From a virus (taxonomy: Duplodnaviria; Caudoviricetes), in IMG/VR virus record IMGVR_UViG_3300025789_000018: a stretch of DNA of 64,000 nucleotides. One strand, written 5' to 3'. Position numbers and translations under genes: made by a program. Position 1 is the stretch's first letter. Each line of letters opens with the position of its first letter. Positions 31,593 to 63,786 of the stretch are shown here, piece by piece. The notes under the pieces were generated by a model. It did no database searches. It saw nothing but the letters and a program-made list of their open reading frames with translations, and was not told where the DNA came from.

Positions 31593-31669
31593 TGGTCTAC
31601 CATGAGAGATTTGAACTCCCGATCTCCTGGCCCCAAACCAGGCGGATTACCAGACTTTCCTAATGGTAG
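31593..31669 (-). tRNA. tRNA-Pro(UGG)
   Basis: Cloverleaf; CCTGG-TTTGGGG-CCAGG; TTCAAAT T-loop; encoded CCA. Confidence 0.92.
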
Positions 31670-31779
31670 ACAATAATCTATTTAGATGAACAATGAACGT
31701 TCAAGTTCTGGTCCTGATTTTCATACCATCTAGCGCCTTACGTCTAGTTCGTAATAGATCATTGTTCATCAAAATAGTC

Positions 31780-31853
31780 TGGTGCCGATAAGAAGAATCG
31801 AACTCCTGTCAGAGGGTTACAAATCCACTGTATTACCACTATACTATATCGGC
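31780..31853 (-). tRNA. tRNA-Thr(UGU)
   Basis: GCCGATA/TATCGGC acceptor, TTTGTAA loop, TTCGATT, CCA; two mismatches in the anticodon stem. Confidence 0.85.
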
Positions 31854-31854
31854 A

Positions 31855-32481
31855 TTAAACTTTCGTTGTGCGTACCGTAGTCTCACCAGTGTCATCGTTA
31901 TGACTTACGTGATGAGCATTGAAGTTAACACCAGGATGATGTTGCTTCAATGAAAGAAACTGTGCTAGATTGTCTTTAGAATCATCATAGAGATGGACGT
32001 TTTTATATCCATTCTGATTAATGAGATTGTGTACAATATCACGTTTTCTTACGGCAGGATCACCAGGCTTATTACCAGCCCTGCGAACATGCACTTTATT
32101 TATATCTACTCCATACTTCTTCATAAACTCGGCAAACTTTGGCTGATCGTCAAAGTCTGCCCGAGCAGTTAGTATCTCAACCTTACCGCCATTATTATGA
32201 ATGGCTTTCATCTTAGCAAGCATCTTACGAATAGGTTTACCCGTTTGATGCAACTTGCTAGATGATCTAAAGTCAGAGAAGTCATATGAATGACCTGGAT
32301 CTAACTTATGCGTATTGAACTGTTGATTACTTAAAGACTTCACTCGCTTGCCATGTTCATCGTTTACATGAATAGCGAGTGAACCTGGATCGTGAGTAAA
32401 CAAAGTTTCATCCATGTCAAAGGCATGGAGTGTGTTTTGTGACTCGACAATGAAGTTTTTAAAGTTCGTTACGTTGTTCAT
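31855..32481 (-). CDS. HAD-superfamily phosphatase-like protein
   Basis: FDMDETL (motif I), ILTAR (II), LYDDS (IV); TATAAGTA at 32486-32493. Confidence 0.75.
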   Translation of the reverse strand: MNNVTNFKNFIVESQNTLHAFDMDETLFTHDPGSLAIHVNDEHGKRVKSLSNQQFNTHKLDPGHSYDFSDFRSSSKLHQTGKPIRKMLAKMKAIHNNGGKVEILTARADFDDQPKFAEFMKKYGVDINKVHVRRAGNKPGDPAVRKRDIVHNLINQNGYKNVHLYDDSKDNLAQFLSLKQHHPGVNFNAHHVSHNDDTGETTVRTTKV

Positions 32482-32508
32482 GTTCTACTTATAAAACATG
32501 TTCATGTA

Positions 32509-32865
32509 TCAAGTATTGCTTGCAAGAAACTTTTCAATACGCAAGGCGATTGCTTCATCTGGATCTTGAGAATAATGAATAATAGCAGCCTGTGCAAGCT
32601 TTAGAAGTTTGATAATGTCATCTTGCACTGTCTCTTTTACCAACTCGATTTCATCTTTGTAGATATAAACCGAAAGGTCATGATGACCAAAATAACCAGA
32701 ATCAAACTTTACCCGATAATATATCCCATCAGTTTGTCCATATGGATCGATTTTTTCAGTGACAGTACCCAGACTACCGACATCAAGTCCATTATCAGGT
32801 TCGTCAATATAGCCCGTTGCCGAACTGGTAAGCTTAACTCGATCACCAACATTAAACATAATCAA
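32509..32865 (-). CDS. Hypothetical early protein
   Basis: FNVGDRV..GTVTE SH3-like; downstream of promoter at 32919-32937. Confidence 0.55.
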   Translation of the reverse strand: MIMFNVGDRVKLTSSATGYIDEPDNGLDVGSLGTVTEKIDPYGQTDGIYYRVKFDSGYFGHHDLSVYIYKDEIELVKETVQDDIIKLLKLAQAAIIHYSQDPDEAIALRIEKFLASNT

Positions 32866-32933
32866 TCTCCATTTTGTATCAGAGAGAAGCTTTGTCTCTC
32901 TATATTCCCATCATAGCTGATTCGTGGAATAAG

Positions 32934-33494
32934 TCAAGCAGTTTTGAGCCATTTCATAATGTTTTCAGGTGCAGTCTCGCCGTATGGATCATCATCGACA
33001 TTGTGACCAAAGCCAGGTTCAATGAACCACTTTTCGATCTTGCCGTTGTTTACCACTACAGCATAACGCCAGGAACGTGTGCCAAAGCCAAGATTTTCCT
33101 TATTCACTAGCATCGACATACCACTGGTAAATGTACCAGAACCGTCTGGAATGACCTTGACCTTCTGAAGCTGTTGTGACTTGGCCCAAGCATTCATTAC
33201 AAAGGCATCATTGACTGAGATGCAATATACATCATCAATGCCTAGTGCCTTGAAGTCTTTATAGTTTTCTTCGAAACCAGGAAGCTGATATGTCGAACAA
33301 GTAGGTGTAAAGGCACCAGGAAGAGAAAATAGAACTACGCGCTTGTTTGCAAAATAGTCAAACGAAGTCCTTTTTTCCCAACGATAAGGATTTGGTCCTT
33401 CAATCGAATCGTCACGCACACGAGTCTTGAATACTACGTTTGGAACGACTTCTGGTAGATACTCTTCGGGATCATACTGATGTGTCTGGTACAT
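32934..33494 (-). CDS. Peroxiredoxin (Prx5/redoxin family)
   Basis: LFSLPGAFTPTCS, CISVNDAFVMNAW, PDGSGTFT, RSWRYA. Confidence 0.92.
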   Translation of the reverse strand: MYQTHQYDPEEYLPEVVPNVVFKTRVRDDSIEGPNPYRWEKRTSFDYFANKRVVLFSLPGAFTPTCSTYQLPGFEENYKDFKALGIDDVYCISVNDAFVMNAWAKSQQLQKVKVIPDGSGTFTSGMSMLVNKENLGFGTRSWRYAVVVNNGKIEKWFIEPGFGHNVDDDPYGETAPENIMKWLKTA

Positions 33495-33497
33495 ATT

Positions 33498-33896
33498 TTA
33501 TCCTTTCATAATACGTTCACGTAGCCCAGAAGAACTATAGTTATGTTCGCGTCTGTTATAATAAATCTCAATGCCTGGCATATATTTGCCAGTAAAAGTT
33601 TTAGACTCATACTCTTCTCCTACAAACCGAATATCAATCTTCTGGGTGAGTAGAAGATTATATAGGTCACCTTCAGTGGAGTATGGAATGATTTTGTCTA
33701 CATATTTACAGGCATTTAACTGTGACCAACGTTCATATACATCTTGAACTGGCTTATTCTTTTCTGGACGATCAATCGTAGGATCAGTCTGAAGTGCTGC
33801 GATAAGAAAATCACAGTGTTCTTTAGCTTCTTCAAGCATAAGAACATGACCCGAATGAAACAGATCAAAGCAGGAACATGTAATACCAATCTTCAT
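33498..33896 (-). CDS. Glycerol-3-phosphate cytidylyltransferase-like protein
   Basis: FDLFHSGH, ALQTDPT, YVDKIIPY, RFVGEEY, YSSSGLR. Confidence 0.85.
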   Translation of the reverse strand: MKIGITCSCFDLFHSGHVLMLEEAKEHCDFLIAALQTDPTIDRPEKNKPVQDVYERWSQLNACKYVDKIIPYSTEGDLYNLLLTQKIDIRFVGEEYESKTFTGKYMPGIEIYYNRREHNYSSSGLRERIMKG

Positions 33897-34094
33897 AACA
33901 ATCCTTTATTTCACTTAGACCTTTTCAGTGTCATCAATCACCACTTCAAGACAGACATTATCTCTGCCATAGATTAGGTCCAGACTTTCAGCAAGCTTTA
34001 AAGCAGCTTTATAATCTTCGACCAGACATTCAACAACCATTTCGTAATCTGCGTTCAATGCGTATACGTGAAACATGGTAGTTTCCTTTTTAAA

Positions 34095-34171
34095 TGGCTC
34101 CCTAGATAGGATTCGAACCTATAACGACAAGATTAACAGTCTTGTGCCCCTACCGATAGGGCCCCTAGGGA
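34095..34171 (-). tRNA. tRNA-Asn(GUU)
   Basis: TCCCTAG/CTAGGGA, CAAGA-CTGTTAA-TCTTG, TTCGAAT, CCA; G8 and U14 are atypical. Confidence 0.9.
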
Positions 34172-55424: not shown

Positions 55425-55986
55425 TTTCTATGAACTTGTCAATACCTTTTTTCACCTTTGGCTTTTTCTCTGCGGTCTCAGCTTTACGTTCTGCTATTTT
55501 CTTTTCATAATCAGACACAAAGCTGGTCATGTTATCAGTGTTGTTCATTTCTGTAGAGTTAGGATTATCCGAATCTCCATACTCTGTAGCAGCACCGACT
55601 AACACCGCATTCTCAAAGGCTTTATACTTAATGTACGTTTGCTTCTTCTCTTTCTGAATACGAAGGACGTAGGCATTATATATGATACGAGTAAAGTATG
55701 CGAAGGGATTGTTCGACTTGTCTGGATTGAAGTTGTGCATGTAGCTGATGCAGTTTTCAATGCCATCTGAAATCATTTCTTCTTTATAAGAATAGTTGAC
55801 AAAGTTACCCTTGGTGGCTAGCTTAGTTGCGATCTTGAAGATACATACACCAATATACTCAGGGATTCTTGGTGCTGGTAACCCTGCTTCTAGCGCATCT
55901 TGCTTTTTCTTACGATAATCAATCAGTGCATTGTAGAATGATTTGTTGTCAACATAATGCCTGCTGGTATCTTTAGGTCGTGCCAT
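55417..55986 (-). CDS. 55: Late-transcription sigma factor gp55
   Basis: HYVDNK.FY, PEYIG.C..KIA, FVNYSYKEEMISDGIENC, NPFAYFTRI. Confidence 0.95.
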   Translation of the reverse strand: MARPKDTSRHYVDNKSFYNALIDYRKKKQDALEAGLPAPRIPEYIGVCIFKIATKLATKGNFVNYSYKEEMISDGIENCISYMHNFNPDKSNNPFAYFTRIIYNAYVLRIQKEKKQTYIKYKAFENAVLVGAATEYGDSDNPNSTEMNNTDNMTSFVSDYEKKIAERKAETAEKKPKVKKGIDKFIESD

Positions 55987-56044
55987 AATATATTCCTTTT
56001 TCTCTTGACTTTTTCCACAGCTTGTATATAATAAGCAATGTGCT

Positions 56045-56398
56045 TTAATGAATACTAGAACTTAGTGGTATTAGAGATTGATCATCATCTTCAGATTGAT
56101 ATCTCATTGATACATTCTTCTCATAGAATGTAACTACTTCTTGCTCTAGATTAGATACGAATATAACATGTTTCTTATCTAAAGTAAAGAGAATATTGAC
56201 ATCATCGAAAGGATTCAATGAGGTAAGATAAGCTTGAAACTTACCAGTGTCTTCTTCGTAATAGCGATTCGCGACCATTGGATACTCAACAACATATCCA
56301 GTTTCAGTCTCAGTATCGAACCTAGACATTACCAACTCTCCTGTTACCAACTTTAATAGAATGTGTGTTGGAACAGGTTCTTTAGATGTCGATGTCAT
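56045..56398 (-). CDS. Conserved hypothetical protein between uvsW and 55
   Basis: LLKLVTGE; likely start MTSTSK overlapping the uvsW C-fragment end. Confidence 0.65.
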   Translation of the reverse strand: MTSTSKEPVPTHILLKLVTGELVMSRFDTETETGYVVEYPMVANRYYEEDTGKFQAYLTSLNPFDDVNILFTLDKKHVIFVSNLEQEVVTFYEKNVSMRYQSEDDDQSLIPLSSSIH

Positions 56399-56706
56399 AA
56401 ATCTTGAAAGCAAACTCTTCTTCTTCATAAATCTTCTTTCTCTCTTTGAGATGTTGCATAGTATAGTTCTGTTTGGACTTCCATGAAAGGTCATCTGCTA
56501 TATCAAAAAGAGTAACAGAATCTTTTATGTTTGACTTTCTTAACCCTCGACCAATAGACTGAAGTGTTTTGATCTTGGACTTGCCTGGTGATGCAAAGAT
56601 GATATTGTGAATGTTCTTGATGTTAACACCCGTGGAGAAACGTACCAGAACTGGCTACGATAATCGCGCCATGTTCAACCTCCTGTCCCACTTTATTTGG
56701 TTTCAT
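56382..56706 (-). CDS. uvsW: UvsW C-terminal fragment (needs +1 shift at TTT-C, 56637-56640)
   Basis: MKPNKVGQEVEHG-AIIVASSGT in one frame, then FSTGVNIKNIHNIIFASPGKSKIKTLQSIGRGLRK...KIYDIDI* in the +1 frame (motifs V, VI). Confidence 0.75.
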
Positions 56707-57364
56707 TTTTCTTATTCTTTCTTCTCTCTAGCATCATTGCTTTGAATGCAGGATCTTTCCAACGCTCTTTTAGTTTGCTACCGTCAGAACCTCTTTTTGG
56801 TCTATTTTTCATTTTTTCTAGATATTCAGGATCTTTCCATTTTTCTTTCAACTTATAGCTAGCGTCTTGTCTCTTATCTATATCACCATTCACTTCCGAC
56901 ATGGTTGTGACAAATCTACTATAAAAAACTTCGTCTGAGTATCGGTTTTTCATATATTCTGTGTGTTGCTTATGTCTCTCTTCCGACCAACTCATATTCT
57001 GCACTCTAACGTTATATTCTTCTGGTGTTAGATTCTTCCATTGTTCTCTAAAAAATACACTAAGATTTTTGCTGTGCAATCTTTTGATCCATCCATACTC
57101 TTTATTACACAAACGTCTATCACTATTATGATACATTAGCATTGTTGTCGCATATATCAGCTTAGGATTATTTGGGTGCATTTTTATCAAAAGCTGATGG
57201 GCAACATAGTGTTCTTCTGGTGTTAGCTTCACAAGATTGCTGGAATCATCAGTGCCACCTAAACATTTAGGAACAATGTGGTGTTTTTCATAATAATCAT
57301 CTACATTGATGCATCTAGTCTTTCCACGTTGTACTAACTCTCCGTAGATTCTCGTGTAGTCCAT
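56693..57364 (-). CDS. MobE-like HNH homing endonuclease inserted in uvsW
   Basis: MDYTRIY..EKHHIVPKCLGGTDDSSNLVKLTPEEHYVAHQLL matches the T4 MobE pattern; TATAAGTA upstream. Confidence 0.88.
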   Translation of the reverse strand: MDYTRIYGELVQRGKTRCINVDDYYEKHHIVPKCLGGTDDSSNLVKLTPEEHYVAHQLLIKMHPNNPKLIYATTMLMYHNSDRRLCNKEYGWIKRLHSKNLSVFFREQWKNLTPEEYNVRVQNMSWSEERHKQHTEYMKNRYSDEVFYSRFVTTMSEVNGDIDKRQDASYKLKEKWKDPEYLEKMKNRPKRGSDGSKLKERWKDPAFKAMMLERRKNKKNETK

Positions 57365-58692
57365 ATAACTTTGCCTATCAATGTTGACGCCTGTATATTA
57401 CTTATACATTTACTGGTGTCAACATCATCATTTTCTGTAATGTTGTCAATTTTTTTCGTTGTACCATCCATTAGAGGTACGTTTTGGCCATCTTTTATTT
57501 TGAGAATGAAGTCATCAAAGTGTAATGATATCACGGTGTTTGTCTGTGTCTCTACCAGTTTACGTATTTCTTCGCGAACGTCACCGTCAACACCGCCATA
57601 GATGAAATGTATAGGTCTATCGCCAGCAGCATCATTGATTGCTTTATACAAGTCTTTGCCGTGCTTCTCCACGTATTGAAAAAGAAGTAGAGTATTACCT
57701 TTTAGAGATAGAGCAAGGTTCTTAACAAACTTGTTACGTGCTTGATTGCCAACAATGAAATCCATTTCCTGTTTGTAGTCATTGTCTTTGTTGACTTTAC
57801 GAACTTCTTCTGCGTACTTTAAGACAAGTATCTTAATCTTCAGTTCGGCCAAATGCTTCTGTTCTATTAGATCAGCCGTTGATGCAACACGCTTTGCTGT
57901 ACCAAATAGCCCTTCTAGTACCAGCTTATTCGTTTCAATGCCGTCTAGTGTACCAGTGAAACCAAACCGATGTTTGCAGTTGACAAGATTGTCCATGATT
58001 GCAGTAAGAGATTTAGCTTTGAAAAGATGACATTCATCACCCATTACCACATCATACTGTGAGAACCAAGACTTTGGTTGCTTATAGATTGACTGCCATG
58101 TTGAAATAGTAAACATAGCATTAGTCTTCTTATCAGCACCAGCAGTGATCTTGTGTACTAGTTCATCATAGCCATAAGACTTAAAATCATCTGCTAACTG
58201 ATGAACCAAAGAAATAGTTGGTACAATGATTAGAGTTTTTTTAGCGTAATACTGTGCGATCATATAAATGATCAATGACTTACCAGAAGCGGTAGGAGAC
58301 AGTAGGAGCGATCTTGTCTTACGTACTGCATGTGCCAGTGCAGCTAACTGGTAATCGCGTGGTGCGAACGGGAGGTTTAAGGATTGAGCAAAATCTTCAG
58401 CTTCCCTTAGTGAAAATGGTGTTTCGTTAAACTCATCACTAAACTGGACATCATATCCACGATTACGAGCGAATGCTAGAACGTTTTGAAACAATCCTGC
58501 ATAGACGGTCTTTGTCATCACATTGAACAAACGAATCTTGCCGTCCCATAGTCTTTGTCTGACTAGAGGATGAAACTTGGCATTTGGTACCATGAACGTA
58601 AAGTATTCTGACAACTCCATAGCTAGACCGCTTTCACAGTCTACTCTGATGTGTACCTCGTTTACCTTTGTGATGTATAATGTGTCTGTCAT
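57334..58692 (-). CDS. uvsW: UvsW helicase N-terminal fragment with a non-helicase tail
   Basis: RDYQ, SPTASGKS, IVPTISLV, GDECH, GFTGT, LLLFQYVEKHG; homology ends at ETQTN (about 57538). Confidence 0.92.
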   Translation of the reverse strand: MTDTLYITKVNEVHIRVDCESGLAMELSEYFTFMVPNAKFHPLVRQRLWDGKIRLFNVMTKTVYAGLFQNVLAFARNRGYDVQFSDEFNETPFSLREAEDFAQSLNLPFAPRDYQLAALAHAVRKTRSLLLSPTASGKSLIIYMIAQYYAKKTLIIVPTISLVHQLADDFKSYGYDELVHKITAGADKKTNAMFTISTWQSIYKQPKSWFSQYDVVMGDECHLFKAKSLTAIMDNLVNCKHRFGFTGTLDGIETNKLVLEGLFGTAKRVASTADLIEQKHLAELKIKILVLKYAEEVRKVNKDNDYKQEMDFIVGNQARNKFVKNLALSLKGNTLLLFQYVEKHGKDLYKAINDAAGDRPIHFIYGGVDGDVREEIRKLVETQTNTVISLHFDDFILKIKDGQNVPLMDGTTKKIDNITENDDVDTSKCISNIQASTLIGKVIWTTRESTES

Positions 58693-59141
58693 TAGTTTCC
58701 GTTTTTAAATCTCTGCCACTCAATATAGTTGCGAACTATGAACCCACGCTCTGTGACGTTCTTGATGATCGACTCAAGCAATGCGGTCTTTTCTTTTTGA
58801 TATGAAATCTTAAGTGTTAAGTTGATAATGTCTTGATCTGAATCGATATGCATCGGAATATCAGACTTAAGAATGGCGCGAGGATTTGGTTTCCATCCAC
58901 TTTCTTCCAGTGTTTCTCGGTCTAGTGTACCCATGAAGTATTCAAACTTCAGGTGATACAACTGCTTATAATCTGCTTCTAACTTCCGAAGCTGTAGTCG
59001 TTCGTTTGAGAATACCTTGTAGTATTTATGATGTAGTTTTGGGATATTTACTGCAACCTGATCAATCGCAGTGGTATCAATCTCTGAGTCTTCTGCCCAG
59101 AGGTCATAGATTTCTTCAAGCTTCATGAATATAAACCTCAA
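58692..59141 (-). CDS. uvsY: Recombination mediator UvsY
   Basis: IPKLHHKYY, RGFIVRNYIEWQRF; position between gene 3 and uvsW. Confidence 0.85.
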   Translation of the reverse strand: MRFIFMKLEEIYDLWAEDSEIDTTAIDQVAVNIPKLHHKYYKVFSNERLQLRKLEADYKQLYHLKFEYFMGTLDRETLEESGWKPNPRAILKSDIPMHIDSDQDIINLTLKISYQKEKTALLESIIKNVTERGFIVRNYIEWQRFKNGN

Positions 59142-59656
59142 GTTAAGCGGGTGTATGTGTACTCGCGATATGAAAACTCTGCTGTAGCCGTAACGTAGTT
59201 TACATCAGTTTCAGTGGAATCAAATCTGAAACCCGACAGTGAAATGGGGTTGACATCACTAAATGTGATCTTAAGATTTGGATTCATTGTACCATTCAAT
59301 ACAATCAAGTCCGCGTCTACCAGAACACCGAAACCGTTTGGTTGTGCATTCAATGCTGCATACTGATTGAAACTCTCTGGAGTACCAATACCAGTCATCC
59401 AGTCATAGATTTCAAAGTAGTTGTACATGTCTTCATCGATCTTGAATGTCAACGAGAATGTATCAAACGTCAATGGAGTACCTGGCAACTGCATCTTACC
59501 GAAAGGTGTCTGTTGATTTCTGCTAGTGCTTAGACTGATGCGAGGAAAATCAAAGCTTTGGGCAAAGTAGTCAACATTTGGATTCTTGGTGAGATTAAAC
59601 TTATAACCAAGCGGGCTGAGAAAGTCGATTGATACAGGTTGAGTTGGATTTGTCAT
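59138..59656 (-). CDS. 3: Tail completion / sheath stabiliser gp3
   Basis: FLSPLGYKF, F.IDEDM.NY.EIYDWM, FDSTETDV.Y.TA.A.F.Y; synteny. Confidence 0.8.
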   Translation of the reverse strand: MTNPTQPVSIDFLSPLGYKFNLTKNPNVDYFAQSFDFPRISLSTSRNQQTPFGKMQLPGTPLTFDTFSLTFKIDEDMYNYFEIYDWMTGIGTPESFNQYAALNAQPNGFGVLVDADLIVLNGTMNPNLKITFSDVNPISLSGFRFDSTETDVNYVTATAEFSYREYTYTRLT

Positions 59657-60276
59657 AAAACATCTTTCTTTTTGTATGGACCTCGTTTGATTCCAGTTCG
59701 CGCTAATCCGCTTTTTCTTCCTGCTTCATTCATCAATTCTTTTGGTCTAGATTTTTGTGCGATAGACTGTTTTTCTTTCCAAACATCACCTCTATTTCTT
59801 GCATTTTCCCTAAACGCGCATAGAGTAGCTTCCGAATACACTCCAGTTTTTCCTTTATTCCAGGGCTCTTTACCAAGTAGGATTTTAGATTTATTATCTT
59901 TCCATTCCTGAGTACGCTCGTATTTGCCCATTTTTGCGCTATTAGATTTAGGCTTCCTCATCTTCTGCCTGGTCTCTTCGGTGTGTTGCCATCCTGATAT
60001 TCTGCCGGCGCTTATATTCTCTACGATCAGATTGGCCCATTCTTTAGATTCTACTATATTATTATCTTCGGAAAACTTGATTGCAAAATCTCTAGCTTCT
60101 TCCTCGTCATAAAACGAGAACAACTCTAACGTTTCTTGTTTAGAATTGTGTTTTTTTAGATGATCTTTCCAGTAGATTCCAGAACCCGTATATGATATGG
60201 GATCGGATCCCATTGTTTTACCGAAATATCTCAGTTCGCAGTGTGTGCATTTTTTCACATAAAGATGTATTGCCAT
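59653..60276 (-). CDS. GIY-YIG-like (Seg-type) homing endonuclease
   Basis: IHLYVKKCTHC.LRYFGKT, YTGSGIYW, HTEETRQKM, PWNKGKTG; TATAAATA at 60304-60311. Confidence 0.8.
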   Translation of the reverse strand: MAIHLYVKKCTHCELRYFGKTMGSDPISYTGSGIYWKDHLKKHNSKQETLELFSFYDEEEARDFAIKFSEDNNIVESKEWANLIVENISAGRISGWQHTEETRQKMRKPKSNSAKMGKYERTQEWKDNKSKILLGKEPWNKGKTGVYSEATLCAFRENARNRGDVWKEKQSIAQKSRPKELMNEAGRKSGLARTGIKRGPYKKKDVL

Positions 60277-62331: not shown

Positions 62332-62408
62332 GGACCCTTAGCTTAGTAGGCTAAAGCATTCGACTTTTAATCGAAAGATCCTGGGTTCGAGTCCCAGAGG
62401 GTCCACCA
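62332..62408 (+). tRNA. tRNA-Lys(UUU)
   Basis: Canonical cloverleaf; TTCGA-CTTTTAA-TCGAA; CCA. Confidence 0.95.
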
Positions 62409-62571
62409 AACTAAGTGAAGGTAATTTATGATCAAGATCATACTTGTTGTGATGTTAATTTCGGTTGCAATAGCTATCATCAACGGTATATGTGATAAGG
62501 ATGATAATACTGCTGGTTGGAGTTAGCAACAAGGATACTGGTGAAAATCCAGGCGGGTCCACCAATTTAAT

Positions 62572-62646
62572 GCGCGATTAACTCAGCGGTAGAGTGCTGT
62601 CCTGACTCGACAGATGCCGGAAGTTCGATCCTTCCATCGCGCACCA
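62572..62646 (+). tRNA. tRNA-Val(GAC)
   Basis: Cloverleaf; CTGTC-CTGACTC-GACAG (U37 atypical); CCA. Confidence 0.9.
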
Positions 62647-62649
62647 ATA

Positions 62650-63231
62650 TTATTGTGAAACTCTAAAAGCAGAACTTACACCCAAGGTAAACTTGTGTTC
62701 GCTATAGCCAATGTCAAACTGTAGATTCTGTTTCTTAGGTGGAACCCATGAAACATAGATGCCAGTTTTGACCTTTGTGTCATAGTAGACAGAAGGCATG
62801 ATTGTAAGTGTATCTGTTGGTGTAAAGTTGTATTCAGTCACATATGTCTGTGAATGTTTAGCAATCTGAACATCTGTACCAAAGTAAAAGTATTTGTTAA
62901 AAACATACTTTGATGGCACTTCAATGAAAACACCATTGTTATTATCGTATCCTAGCTTGGCTGATAAGTCAAACTTGTGATTATAAATGATAGCATACTT
63001 TGCACCAAAGCTGGTGTTATCTTTGGATACTTCTAAGTCCTTTGCAATAGCCATTCTAAACTCATAACCATCAGTACCTATTTCAGCCTGAAAAGTTTTA
63101 AGTGGAATGACGTCAGCATCGATACCTACGCCTGGTCTATCAGCATTGATCTGTTGATCTTCCGCGAGTGCTGGAGCAGAGAACAGAAGTGTTAGTGCTA
63201 CTATTACTGCTTTTGTTCTACGTAGCCACAT
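62650..63231 (-). CDS. Putative outer-membrane beta-barrel protein
   Basis: Signal peptide ending PALA; I.ADRP..P..FQ.E.G like MetA-pathway/phenol-degradation barrels; alternating beta pattern. Confidence 0.55.
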   Translation of the reverse strand: MWLRRTKAVIVALTLLFSAPALAEDQQINADRPGVGIDADVIPLKTFQAEIGTDGYEFRMAIAKDLEVSKDNTSFGAKYAIIYNHKFDLSAKLGYDNNNGVFIEVPSKYVFNKYFYFGTDVQIAKHSQTYVTEYNFTPTDTLTIMPSVYYDTKVKTGIYVSWVPPKKQNLQFDIGYSEHKFTLGVSSAFRVSQ

Positions 63232-63566
63232 CCTGCTTTGTCCTCATGGAGTGATGTTAGTTCGACATGCATTGCTTTGATTTCAGCAAACTCGGCCAAG
63301 ATCGTTTCGTGATCTTGCTGGCTTCTAGCTTCTGTCTTTCTGGCTTGAACTTCTTGACCTACCATGATTACACTAAGTAGAACTAGTTGAAGAAATGTCT
63401 GTGCGATCCATGAGATTGTAGCTGCAAGCCCAGCGTGAATAGCGTCTGGTAGACTGATTAGAGCCAACAAAGCAAACGCATAAGCACACCACATGGTGCC
63501 TACTGTATCTGTAAGGGTCACTGCAACCATGTCGTTGAACTTAGTGATGTTATCTTTGATAGACAT
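63204..63566 (-). CDS. DUF1003-like membrane protein
   Basis: GTMWCAYAFALLALISLP..WIAQTFLQLVLLSVIMVGQ. Confidence 0.65.
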   Translation of the reverse strand: MSIKDNITKFNDMVAVTLTDTVGTMWCAYAFALLALISLPDAIHAGLAATISWIAQTFLQLVLLSVIMVGQEVQARKTEARSQQDHETILAEFAEIKAMHVELTSLHEDKAGCGYVEQKQ

Positions 63567-63611
63567 GATTATACTCCCTTTTTATTATTATTTATGATTT
63601 AGAGAGTTTGT

Positions 63612-63696
63612 GCGGGCGTGGGGGAATTGGTAGACCCGCGAGACTTAAAATCTTGTTGCTTCGGCAGTGCTGGTTCGATTCCAGTCGCCCGTACCA
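63612..63696 (+). tRNA. tRNA-Leu(UAA)
   Basis: Class II cloverleaf; CTTAAAA loop; TGC-TTCG-GCA variable arm; CCA. Confidence 0.95.
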
Positions 63697-63712
63697 AATA
63701 AGTAACGAATAC

Positions 63713-63786
63713 TGCCCTTTCGTCTAATGGTAGGACCACGCCCTTTGAAGGCGTTAATCTTGGTTCGAATCCAAGCGGAGCATCCA
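63713..63786 (+). tRNA. tRNA-Gln(UUG)
   Basis: ACGCC-CTTTGAA-GGCGT; TTCGAAT; CCA; two acceptor-stem mismatches. Confidence 0.88.

Follow-up and report, generated by a model that had tools for sequence, protein, structure and literature searches.

Can a working helicase be made from a gene that a homing endonuclease cassette has cut in two, when one extra base also puts the second half out of frame? The question is raised by the uvsW locus of a virus of the class Caudoviricetes (Duplodnaviria; IMG/VR record IMGVR_UViG_3300025789_000018), analysed here as a single stretch of 64,000 nucleotides (nt), hereafter the window. A first-pass annotation, made from the letters alone, had read the locus as uvsW fractured by a MobE-like HNH nuclease gene, with an intein-like remnant on the N-terminal half. 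Our explanation, which we hold at a probability of roughly 55%, is that an element built on the plan of the T4 MobA/gene 39-60 element lives in uvsW, and that the extra base would both shield it from its own nuclease and be read through by +1 recoding.

The interrupted gene encodes UvsW, a superfamily 2 helicase of T4-like phages, recognised by the UvsW_N domain, helicase motifs I–VI and the adjacent uvsY. In BLASTP against UvsW of cyanophage P-RSM1, the N-half showed 45% identity and the C-terminal piece 58% (E 2e-33). UvsW homology of the N-half ends at ...ETQT(N), residue 384/385, where a tail of 67 amino acids (aa) begins, and motifs V and VI are encoded in the C-half; the homology break between ETQTN and AIIVAS, placed ahead of motifs V/VI in the first-pass annotation, was indeed found there. 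The fracturing gene is, as had been proposed, a free-standing Mob-type HNH gene. Its product is 33–38% identical to annotated Mob-like endonucleases of T4-like phages, with a Pfam HNH score below the cut-off and no detectable similarity to the T4 60.1 remnant. uvsW is split in two by this mobile homing endonuclease cassette, which was found in freshwater metagenomes from at least 16 studies.

Both the architecture and the mobility of the cassette are evident from alleles that do not carry the nuclease. Related contigs (P0006/L009) encode an uninterrupted UvsW of 479 aa, 99% identical, and the window departs from this HNH-free allele at two of the first 1152 nt and is identical to it over the last 249 nt; between these, 39 nt of L009 are replaced by ~910 nt, with clean identity breaks on both sides. 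In a contig from run X20, position 56640 is joined to 57541 with 29 host-type letters between, and the two comparisons place the right cassette border 0–9 nt past the extra base, with a narrower estimate of 6–8 nt. The HNH open reading frame (ORF) overlaps the end of the tail ORF out of frame, by 31 nt, and the C-half begins with a short head whose motif, MKP-x-K, is present in all cassettes. Behind the head lie 10 recoded codons that stand in for the deleted host segment (~67% DNA identity to the host). They encode nearly the same peptide, with a switch of Ser codon family; as 10/30 nt nevertheless differ, these codons must travel with the cassette. Furthermore, divergence between cassettes is usually much lower than between their flanks (window versus L003, L013 versus L014), with a proportion of differing synonymous sites (pS) of ~0 in the cassette and 0.4–0.6 in the flanks, the signature of recent homing.

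The C-half had been described as starting at an ATG that overlaps the HNH end and as carrying an extra head. The ATG and a 13-residue head are there, but the C-half is not a single ORF: after 27 codons the ATG frame runs into a TAA (56625-56623). One extra base is present after codon 23, hence a full C-half needs a +1 shift, and when TTTC is read as a single Phe the result is a 107-aa C-half matching intact UvsW throughout. The conserved peptide lies in the ATG frame up to the Phe codon and in the +1 frame from precisely that codon on; the +1-frame part opens with STGVNIKN... and runs to a stop codon at 56384-56382. Independent contigs from other runs showed no indel relative to the window at the break, with the extra base present. 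The same GTF / STG break occurs in lineages L003, L007, L008, L099, L113, L142, L148 and L149, the last five of which were found by a DNA pattern scan, and the slip site is TTT_C, or TTT_T (UUU_U) in L008. Split N-halves with the same kind of tail were detected on helicases 55–56% identical (P0024, P0042), whose contigs carry the same ATG, an MKP-type head, an AII(V/I)ASxGTF segment and a +1 break at the Phe codon. The frame break is conserved across lineages and is not a private lesion; among the features of the locus, the most unusual is not the tail but this proposed recoding site. The coordinates of all features are collected in Table 1.

Table 1. Features of the split uvsW locus, in upstream-to-downstream order, with positions counted along the window.
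Feature	Position	Strand	Remarks
uvsY	59141-58692	minus	upstream neighbour of uvsW N-half
uvsW N-half ORF including tail	58692-57334	minus	452 aa
uvsW N-half, host-derived part, codons 1-384 (UvsW_N, motifs I-IV, start of RecA2)	57541..58692	minus	Pfam ResIII 3.9e-20, UvsW_N 3.3e-14
Mobile cassette	56641..57540	minus	900 nt against HNH-free allele of run X20; 910 nt (to 56631) against L009
Tail (codon 385, 67 tail codons, TAG stop)	57334..57540	minus	HINT-like core ~57534-57397; last 31 nt overlap HNH ORF
Free-standing Mob-type HNH homing endonuclease	56693..57364	minus	223 aa; PHROG 655 'homing endonuclease', E 1.6e-49
Head, N-terminal extension of C-half	56668..56706	minus	13 codons; ATG at 56706 overlaps HNH 3' end by 14 nt
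Predicted RNA hairpin	56648..56676	minus	12 bp with bulges; over head end and recoded segment, 7 nt 5' of slip codon
Cassette-borne recoded copy of deleted host segment (AIIVASSGTF, start of motif V)	56638..56667	minus	10 codons; 10/30 nt differ from L009
Frame break UUU_C, proposed +1 slip site	56637..56640	minus	0-frame Phe UUU overlaps +1-frame Phe UUC; one extra base
0-frame run-on (LHGC, then TAA)	56623..56636	minus	sequence different in every lineage
uvsW C-piece in +1 frame (rest of motif V, motif VI QSIGRGLR, C-terminus, stop)	56382..56636	minus	58% identity to P-RSM1 UvsW

Nei-Gojobori counts were used for the ratio of nonsynonymous to synonymous divergence (pN/pS) and for the numbers of nonsynonymous (Nd) and synonymous (Sd) differences. 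In the recoded 10 codons, comparison of the window with L007 gave an Nd of 1/22 and an Sd of 8/8, that is, the synonymous sites are saturated and the peptide is kept. Downstream of the break, the C-piece showed a pN/pS of 0.06–0.08 in the L013/L018 group, and the ORF is intact to its native end in 25 of the 25 cassette loci that reach the end of the C-piece. There is protein-level constraint on both sides of the frame break. The site shares with programmed +1 frameshifts a P-site tRNA that can re-pair in the +1 frame and a conserved break with selection on both frames.

Sister cassettes interrupt the same spot in other ways. An 8-nt insert type (L013, L014, L018, L019 and others) has an insert that starts with TGA and lies between two TCG codons, a few codons upstream of Phe, and a 6-nt type (L152/L154) has an in-frame TAG AAC, also a few codons upstream of Phe. 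L157 and L160 keep the HNH gene and an uninterrupted C-half, with the same spot changed by substitution (Phe to Val, Ser TCN to AGC). The nuclease itself is variable: that of L007 is 46% identical to the window nuclease, and that of L008 shares only its C-terminal 95 residues with the window HNH (42% identity), plus the ...NET(K/N) end. With these 95 residues shared and the catalytic domain unrelated, L008 points to a nuclease-domain swap on a common DNA-binding module; the catalytic domain was not recognised in Pfam or PHROGs. By eye only, this unrelated N-terminal domain (L008:4356-5057, the contig of P0042) looks GIY-YIG-like. In some lineages the nuclease has been damaged or lost. It is internally deleted in L018 and reduced to a 70-aa remnant in L152, with tail, head and insert kept in both; in L156 it is cleanly lost and the extra base is absent, so that the frame is restored, and the head is 92% identical to the frameshifted L008 head. 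A separate case is L142 (L142:2814-5746), in which uvsW is cut at least twice, the order being a fragment ending HINT-like, a GIY-YIG-like gene, a 291-aa middle piece with a tail, a 302-aa nuclease and a +1-broken C-half.

On the explanation favoured here, the element would have exchanged the missing stretch of uvsW for a block made up of the tail, the HNH gene, a start codon with the 13-residue head, the recoded 10 codons and the extra base in motif V. The extra base, like the 8- and 6-nt inserts or the combined Phe-to-Val and Ser-codon change, would destroy the nuclease's own target and so protect cassette genomes, the part played by the 50-nt gap in the case of MobA. Ribosomes starting at the cassette ATG would then slip +1 on UUU_C, tRNA-Phe re-pairing with UUC, to yield the 107-aa C-half, and the halves would reassemble non-covalently into a working helicase, possibly aided by the tail. 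Several observations were counted in favour, beside the cassette borders and the selection described above. The break is common to cassettes whose nucleases are 46% identical or unrelated in catalytic domain and whose helicases are ~55% identical; L018 and L152, with dead nucleases, keep the split and the insert; L156 has its frame restored after nuclease loss; and L157 and L160, which have no insert, carry changes in the same Phe-Ser codons. That the insert protects against self-cleavage appears likely, by analogy with MobA and from the substitutions at the same codons in uninterrupted cassettes, and we lean, more cautiously, towards ribosomes shifting +1 at UUU_C.

Programmed +1 sites at which the P-site tRNA re-pairs include UCC_UUU_CGU of influenza PA-X and CUU_UGA of bacterial prfB. 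As at sites of this type, UUU_C in uvsW lets tRNA-Phe move to the better-matched UUC, and the next 0-frame codon is the least used of its family; unlike prfB, the uvsW site has no adjacent stop codon and no upstream Shine-Dalgarno sequence, and its CUC is not very rare. A predicted hairpin 5' of the break occurs in most interrupted cassettes and is absent from intact genes and from L160. It was scored by per-sequence z-scores: in the 8-nt and 6-nt types it reaches −15 to −19 kcal/mol, with z of −3.9 to −6 against shuffles and −3.1 to −3.6 against synonymous recoding, and it is also clear in the L099 group and L008. The stems have different sequences and registers in each lineage, with no common register. 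A perfect 11-bp hairpin was observed in L013 (L013:3345-3370), L018 and L152, where its end coincides with the take-off codon that precedes TGA or TAG. A short ribosome hop would be expected to have the same codon on both sides of the gap, and this is so in the 8-nt type, with its two TCG codons; a GTG overlapping the stop (GTGA) offers an alternative restart. As to the tRNA complement, ARAGORN detected seven tRNA genes in the window (positions 31593-34171 and 62332-63786; Pro, Thr, Asn, Lys, Val, Leu-UAA and Gln), with no tRNA-Phe and no tRNA with an extended anticodon loop able to read UUUC.

Such restarts could allow a helicase in three pieces, in which the 27-residue product of the mini-ORF, comprising the head and the AIIVAS strand, and a separately initiated C-piece dock onto the N-half and recoding is not involved. 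A TTG in the C-piece frame in L007 and L008, and the GTGA of the 8-nt variant, would suit this arrangement. It is improbable, however, as neither the window nor the L003 type has an ATG, GTG or TTG in the C-piece (+1) frame upstream of the Phe codon, the 6-nt variant has no start codon either, and those start codons that exist have no Shine-Dalgarno sequence at a useful distance. A motif V cut into separate peptides would also be hard to square with function.

A number of observations weigh against read-through by recoding. The window hairpin is not significant (−12.8 kcal/mol, z −1.2), L007 has none, and no Shine-Dalgarno-like sequence within a few nt of the slip site and no known +1 stimulator adjacent to it were found. 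The 0-frame codon that follows UUU is CUC; of the Leu codons it is the one used least, yet at 6.7 per 1000 it is only moderately rare. TTT_CTC has two other in-frame occurrences in the window, close to the expected number, and the A-site codon of L008 is the common UUC; a hungry-codon effect at CUC is weakly supported. The TAG AAC of the 6-nt variant has no matched landing codon, hence no single recoding rule covers all variants. Among runs containing the locus no RNA run was found, and the one run labelled 'metatranscriptomic' contains a nuclease-free relative; it is probably a DNA run. Most cassettes arrived recently in their host lineage, so intact C-pieces could reflect history before the invasion. 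Finally, uvsW is dispensable in T4, so that a driving element could afford to break it.

The last two points lead to the main alternative, a purely parasitic cassette with a dead C-half. The extra base, be it an anti-self-cleavage change or a hitch-hiking chance indel, would truncate the C-half after 27 codons, UvsW would be lost wherever the element homes in, and super-Mendelian spread would pay the cost. Functional HNH-free alleles do coexist with the cassette at near identity, in most lineages the cassettes look recently acquired, and no frameshift stimulator is recognised. The MobA element itself is possibly mildly deleterious (Manning and Atkins, bioRxiv 10.1101/2022.08.31.505936). We nevertheless consider a dead C-half unlikely, without its being far-fetched, as the strong constraint on the recoded 10 codons in the ATG frame makes no sense for a peptide that ends four codons later. 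Nor was a secondary lesion present in the 25 C-pieces that reach their end or in the N-halves, and where the nuclease was lost, both halves persist intact along with tail and head, in one case with the frame restored.

In the preferred explanation, recoding and self-protection, the tail would have at most an assisting role, and the first-pass annotation had made more of it, as a stretch resembling the block-B region of HINT domains but lacking Cys1, the TxxH His and a C-extein nucleophile. This description held up well. A profile built from six tails and run (hmmsearch) against 1.8 billion representative proteins gave 69 hits, nearly all C-terminal and mostly in UvsW-type helicase fragments, and it also matched the block-B regions of two real inteins (terminase, GyrB) at library-wide E of 2.7e-4 and 7.1e-4. 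With hhalign, 23 tails aligned to the GyrB intein at 94% probability (E 1e-7) and to four inteins at 96% (E 5e-9), over a span running from the strand before block B, past the TxxH position, to the end of the N-terminal splicing region. An AlphaFold2 model of the tail, for which the input alignment contained two intein rows, has four strands and a helix at a mean predicted local distance difference test score (pLDDT) of 78.7. Only inteins match it at Z>=2, and it superposes on Npu DnaE residues ~52–97 with a root-mean-square deviation (rmsd) of 2.1 Å over 44 residues, at low Z (2.1–3.6, VIA). Foldseek of the model against the Protein Data Bank (PDB) returned nothing at E<=0.001, inteins being distinguished by rmsd only; Pfam gave no family for the tail alone at E<=10, and the tail profile against PDB sequences gave chance DARPin and CsvR rows only, and no intein. 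On the profile alignments and the model, the tail is a true HINT remnant, corresponding to the part from block B to where the N-intein ends. A BLAST extension had suggested that it might be a decayed copy of the motif V region, an idea rejected in favour of HINT homology.

The missing residues were borne out by the intein alignments. No block A is present, the residues after the break (T, F, N or S) are not conserved, there is no +1 nucleophile, and TxxH is degenerate in all tails, being KDGQ in the window and DHNN, KENE or similar in relatives. Comparison with HINT profiles, which had been suggested for tail and head alike, came out in favour of the tail only. The head, 13 aa followed by Ala, has no blocks F and G and no nucleophile, and hhalign against inteins gave it a probability of 0.2%; a reading of the head by eye as the first strand of a C-intein was dropped on that figure.

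Homing endonucleases often reside in introns or inteins, hence the interruption might be removed by splicing of RNA or protein, through a group I intron or an active split intein, unless the extra base is simply a sequencing error. Neither idea is credible to any extent worth entertaining. Without block A and TxxH on the tail, protein splicing is not possible, and the head has neither blocks F and G nor a nucleophile. RNA splicing is unlikely given that Rfam cmscan of positions 55800-59300 at E<=10 found no intron family, and three chance snoRNA/miRNA rows only; moreover, just 25 nt separate the end of the HNH ORF from the resumed host sequence. As for sequencing error, diverged lineages share the extra base, and it recurs in independent contigs from many runs.

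The first-pass annotation had also suggested that the HINT-like tail may act, without splicing, as a docking tag that brings the helicase halves together; at its strongest, this reading would make the tail, along with the head, the key adaptation of the locus. The tail is a HINT remnant, it lies at the C-terminus in nearly all 69 library hits, and it is conserved, with a pN/pS of 0.25–0.5 overall and of 0.25 for L013 versus L018, where its pS of 0.56 is like that of the helicase. In the summary of the Aeromonas phage Aeh1 work available to us, the NrdA split by MobE needed its extensions for activity; in that same summary, however, the extensions are not required for the halves to bind each other. 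The head has no similarity to intein C-fragments, and upstream signals of the nuclease lie in the 3' region of the tail, so that some of the conservation may be at the DNA level. On balance a docking role as the key adaptation seems rather doubtful. Complex prediction of tail and C-half, using the L156/P0202 pair, scored 0.02, which has no bearing either way.

Two further observations concern the tail. At positions 57395-57412 of the window (minus strand), in the 3' part of the tail ORF, lies TATAAGTA, one mismatch from the T4 late-promoter box, and the tail ends of L157 and L160 have the exact TATAAATA at the same place, just ahead of their nuclease genes; part of the tail conservation may, through this promoter-like box, serve nuclease expression. 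Among UvsW relatives, five proteins (P0128, P0133, P0135, P0144 and P0145) have a mini-intein at the DE/CH box, or begin there with a split-intein C-fragment, together with a non-splicing tail at the C-terminus, hence a live intein and a dead half-intein coexist in one helicase.

Comparison with described systems suggests that the T4 MobA/gene 39-60 element, rather than a decayed split intein alone, is the closest model. The MobA element of the topoisomerase gene has a conserved C-terminal extension of ~44 aa, a nuclease of the HNH type that is sometimes replaced by GIY-YIG or VSR enzymes, or lost, and an N-terminal extension consisting of a unique part and a recoded copy of the deleted host segment (67–81% DNA identity), followed by the bypass cassette and the element end at the landing codon (Manning and Atkins, bioRxiv 10.1101/2022.08.31.505936). 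The bypass keeps MobA from nicking the genome that carries it, and once the nuclease is gone the bypass can be lost as well; the described bypass family is found in one gene only, with a gap that is always ~50 nt (bioRxiv 10.1101/2022.08.31.505936). Like the uvsW locus, it has a Mob-type HNH gene inside an ORF, a C-terminal extension overlapping the nuclease start and an N-terminal extension overlapping the nuclease end, then a recoded host segment and a frame-breaking insert, with the element ending just after. Both systems also have near-identical nuclease-free alleles, nucleases that are swapped, truncated or lost, and inserts lost after the nuclease.

The uvsW locus differs from it in its host gene, which is not the topoisomerase large subunit, and in its insert of 1 nt (8/6 nt in sisters) as against 50 nt. 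In the uvsW locus we identified no take-off stem-loop, no in-gap Shine-Dalgarno sequence and no long nascent-peptide signal. Its head measures 13 aa as against ~30, HINT ancestry is recognisable in its C-terminal extension, its nuclease has only a distant relationship to Mob proteins, and recoding is at this point proposed only. Given a host gene that is uvsW and an insert of 1 nt, the cassette would work like the MobA element without being a member of its family. By eye, the C-terminal extension of T4 gp39, FTFELNGDTIIVNENDEVQINGKWITVGEL (L162:1779-2021), looks tail- or HINT-like; hhalign of this extension was not significant against the tail profile (E 0.014, probability 3%) or against inteins (probability 0.9%).

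Two other systems share parts of the arrangement. In Aeromonas phage Aeh1, the mobE HNH gene splits nrdA, and the halves, which bear terminal extensions, reassemble non-covalently (Friedrich 2007, Crona 2011, as summarised in bioRxiv 10.1101/2022.08.31.505936). As at uvsW, a Mob-family HNH gene splits an enzyme gene without intron or intein and the halves gain extensions, whereas the enzyme is a different one and, in that summary, no downstream frame break is reported and the extensions are not known as HINT-derived. Fractured split-intein genes (Dassa et al. 2009, PMC2677866) resemble the uvsW locus in that replication and repair genes of environmental T4-like phages are halved around a nuclease gene and the N-fragment ends in HINT-derived sequence; in contrast, only block B to the end of the N-intein is left in uvsW, and no trans-splicing is possible. 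UvsW is not among the eight enzyme types listed there (PMC2677866), and no published description of such a split uvsW arrangement was found in the literature searched.

On the minus strand the gene order around the locus is tail-tube gene, uvsY, uvsW N-half, HNH ORF, uvsW C-part, a 94-aa gene, gp55 and gp47, and the synteny uvsY-uvsW-small gene-gp55-gp47 is the order in Kyanoviridae, for example P-RSM1 and Pelagibacter phage Mosig. UvsW of the nearest GenBank phages is <50% identical to that of the window, and a megablast of the locus against GenBank phages gave no match. A 207-aa ORF at 59653-60276 (minus strand), lying between the tail-tube gene and its next neighbour, carries a NUMOD3 motif (E 3e-4) and has no PHROG match; it is probably another free-standing homing endonuclease, and is also present beside the HNH-free uvsW allele L009.

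In the wider picture, for which we see the chances as evenly balanced, T4-like phages of lakes would harbour a family of uvsW-targeting cassettes in which an insert of 1, 6 or 8 nt behind a hairpin serves both as a shield against the cassette's own nuclease and as a natural recoding site, with a +1 slip in the window and short stop-hops in the sisters, and intein-less genes in pieces would derive from split inteins minus their catalytic halves. If this is true, the T4 gene 60 bypass, long an isolated curiosity, would gain a counterpart in a second host gene, one that is far simpler and varies naturally. It would also offer a natural allelic series (0, 1, 6 and 8 nt, with or without nuclease, with or without hairpin) in which minimal shift and hop signals could be sought, and a test of whether homing endonucleases give rise to recoding sites as a means of self-immunity. 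As a candidate for a small association module that does not splice, the HINT-derived tail would link fractured genes with split inteins to intein-less split genes with extensions, so far treated separately. Annotation pipelines treat such genes as broken or overlook the C-half, as in L003-type contigs.

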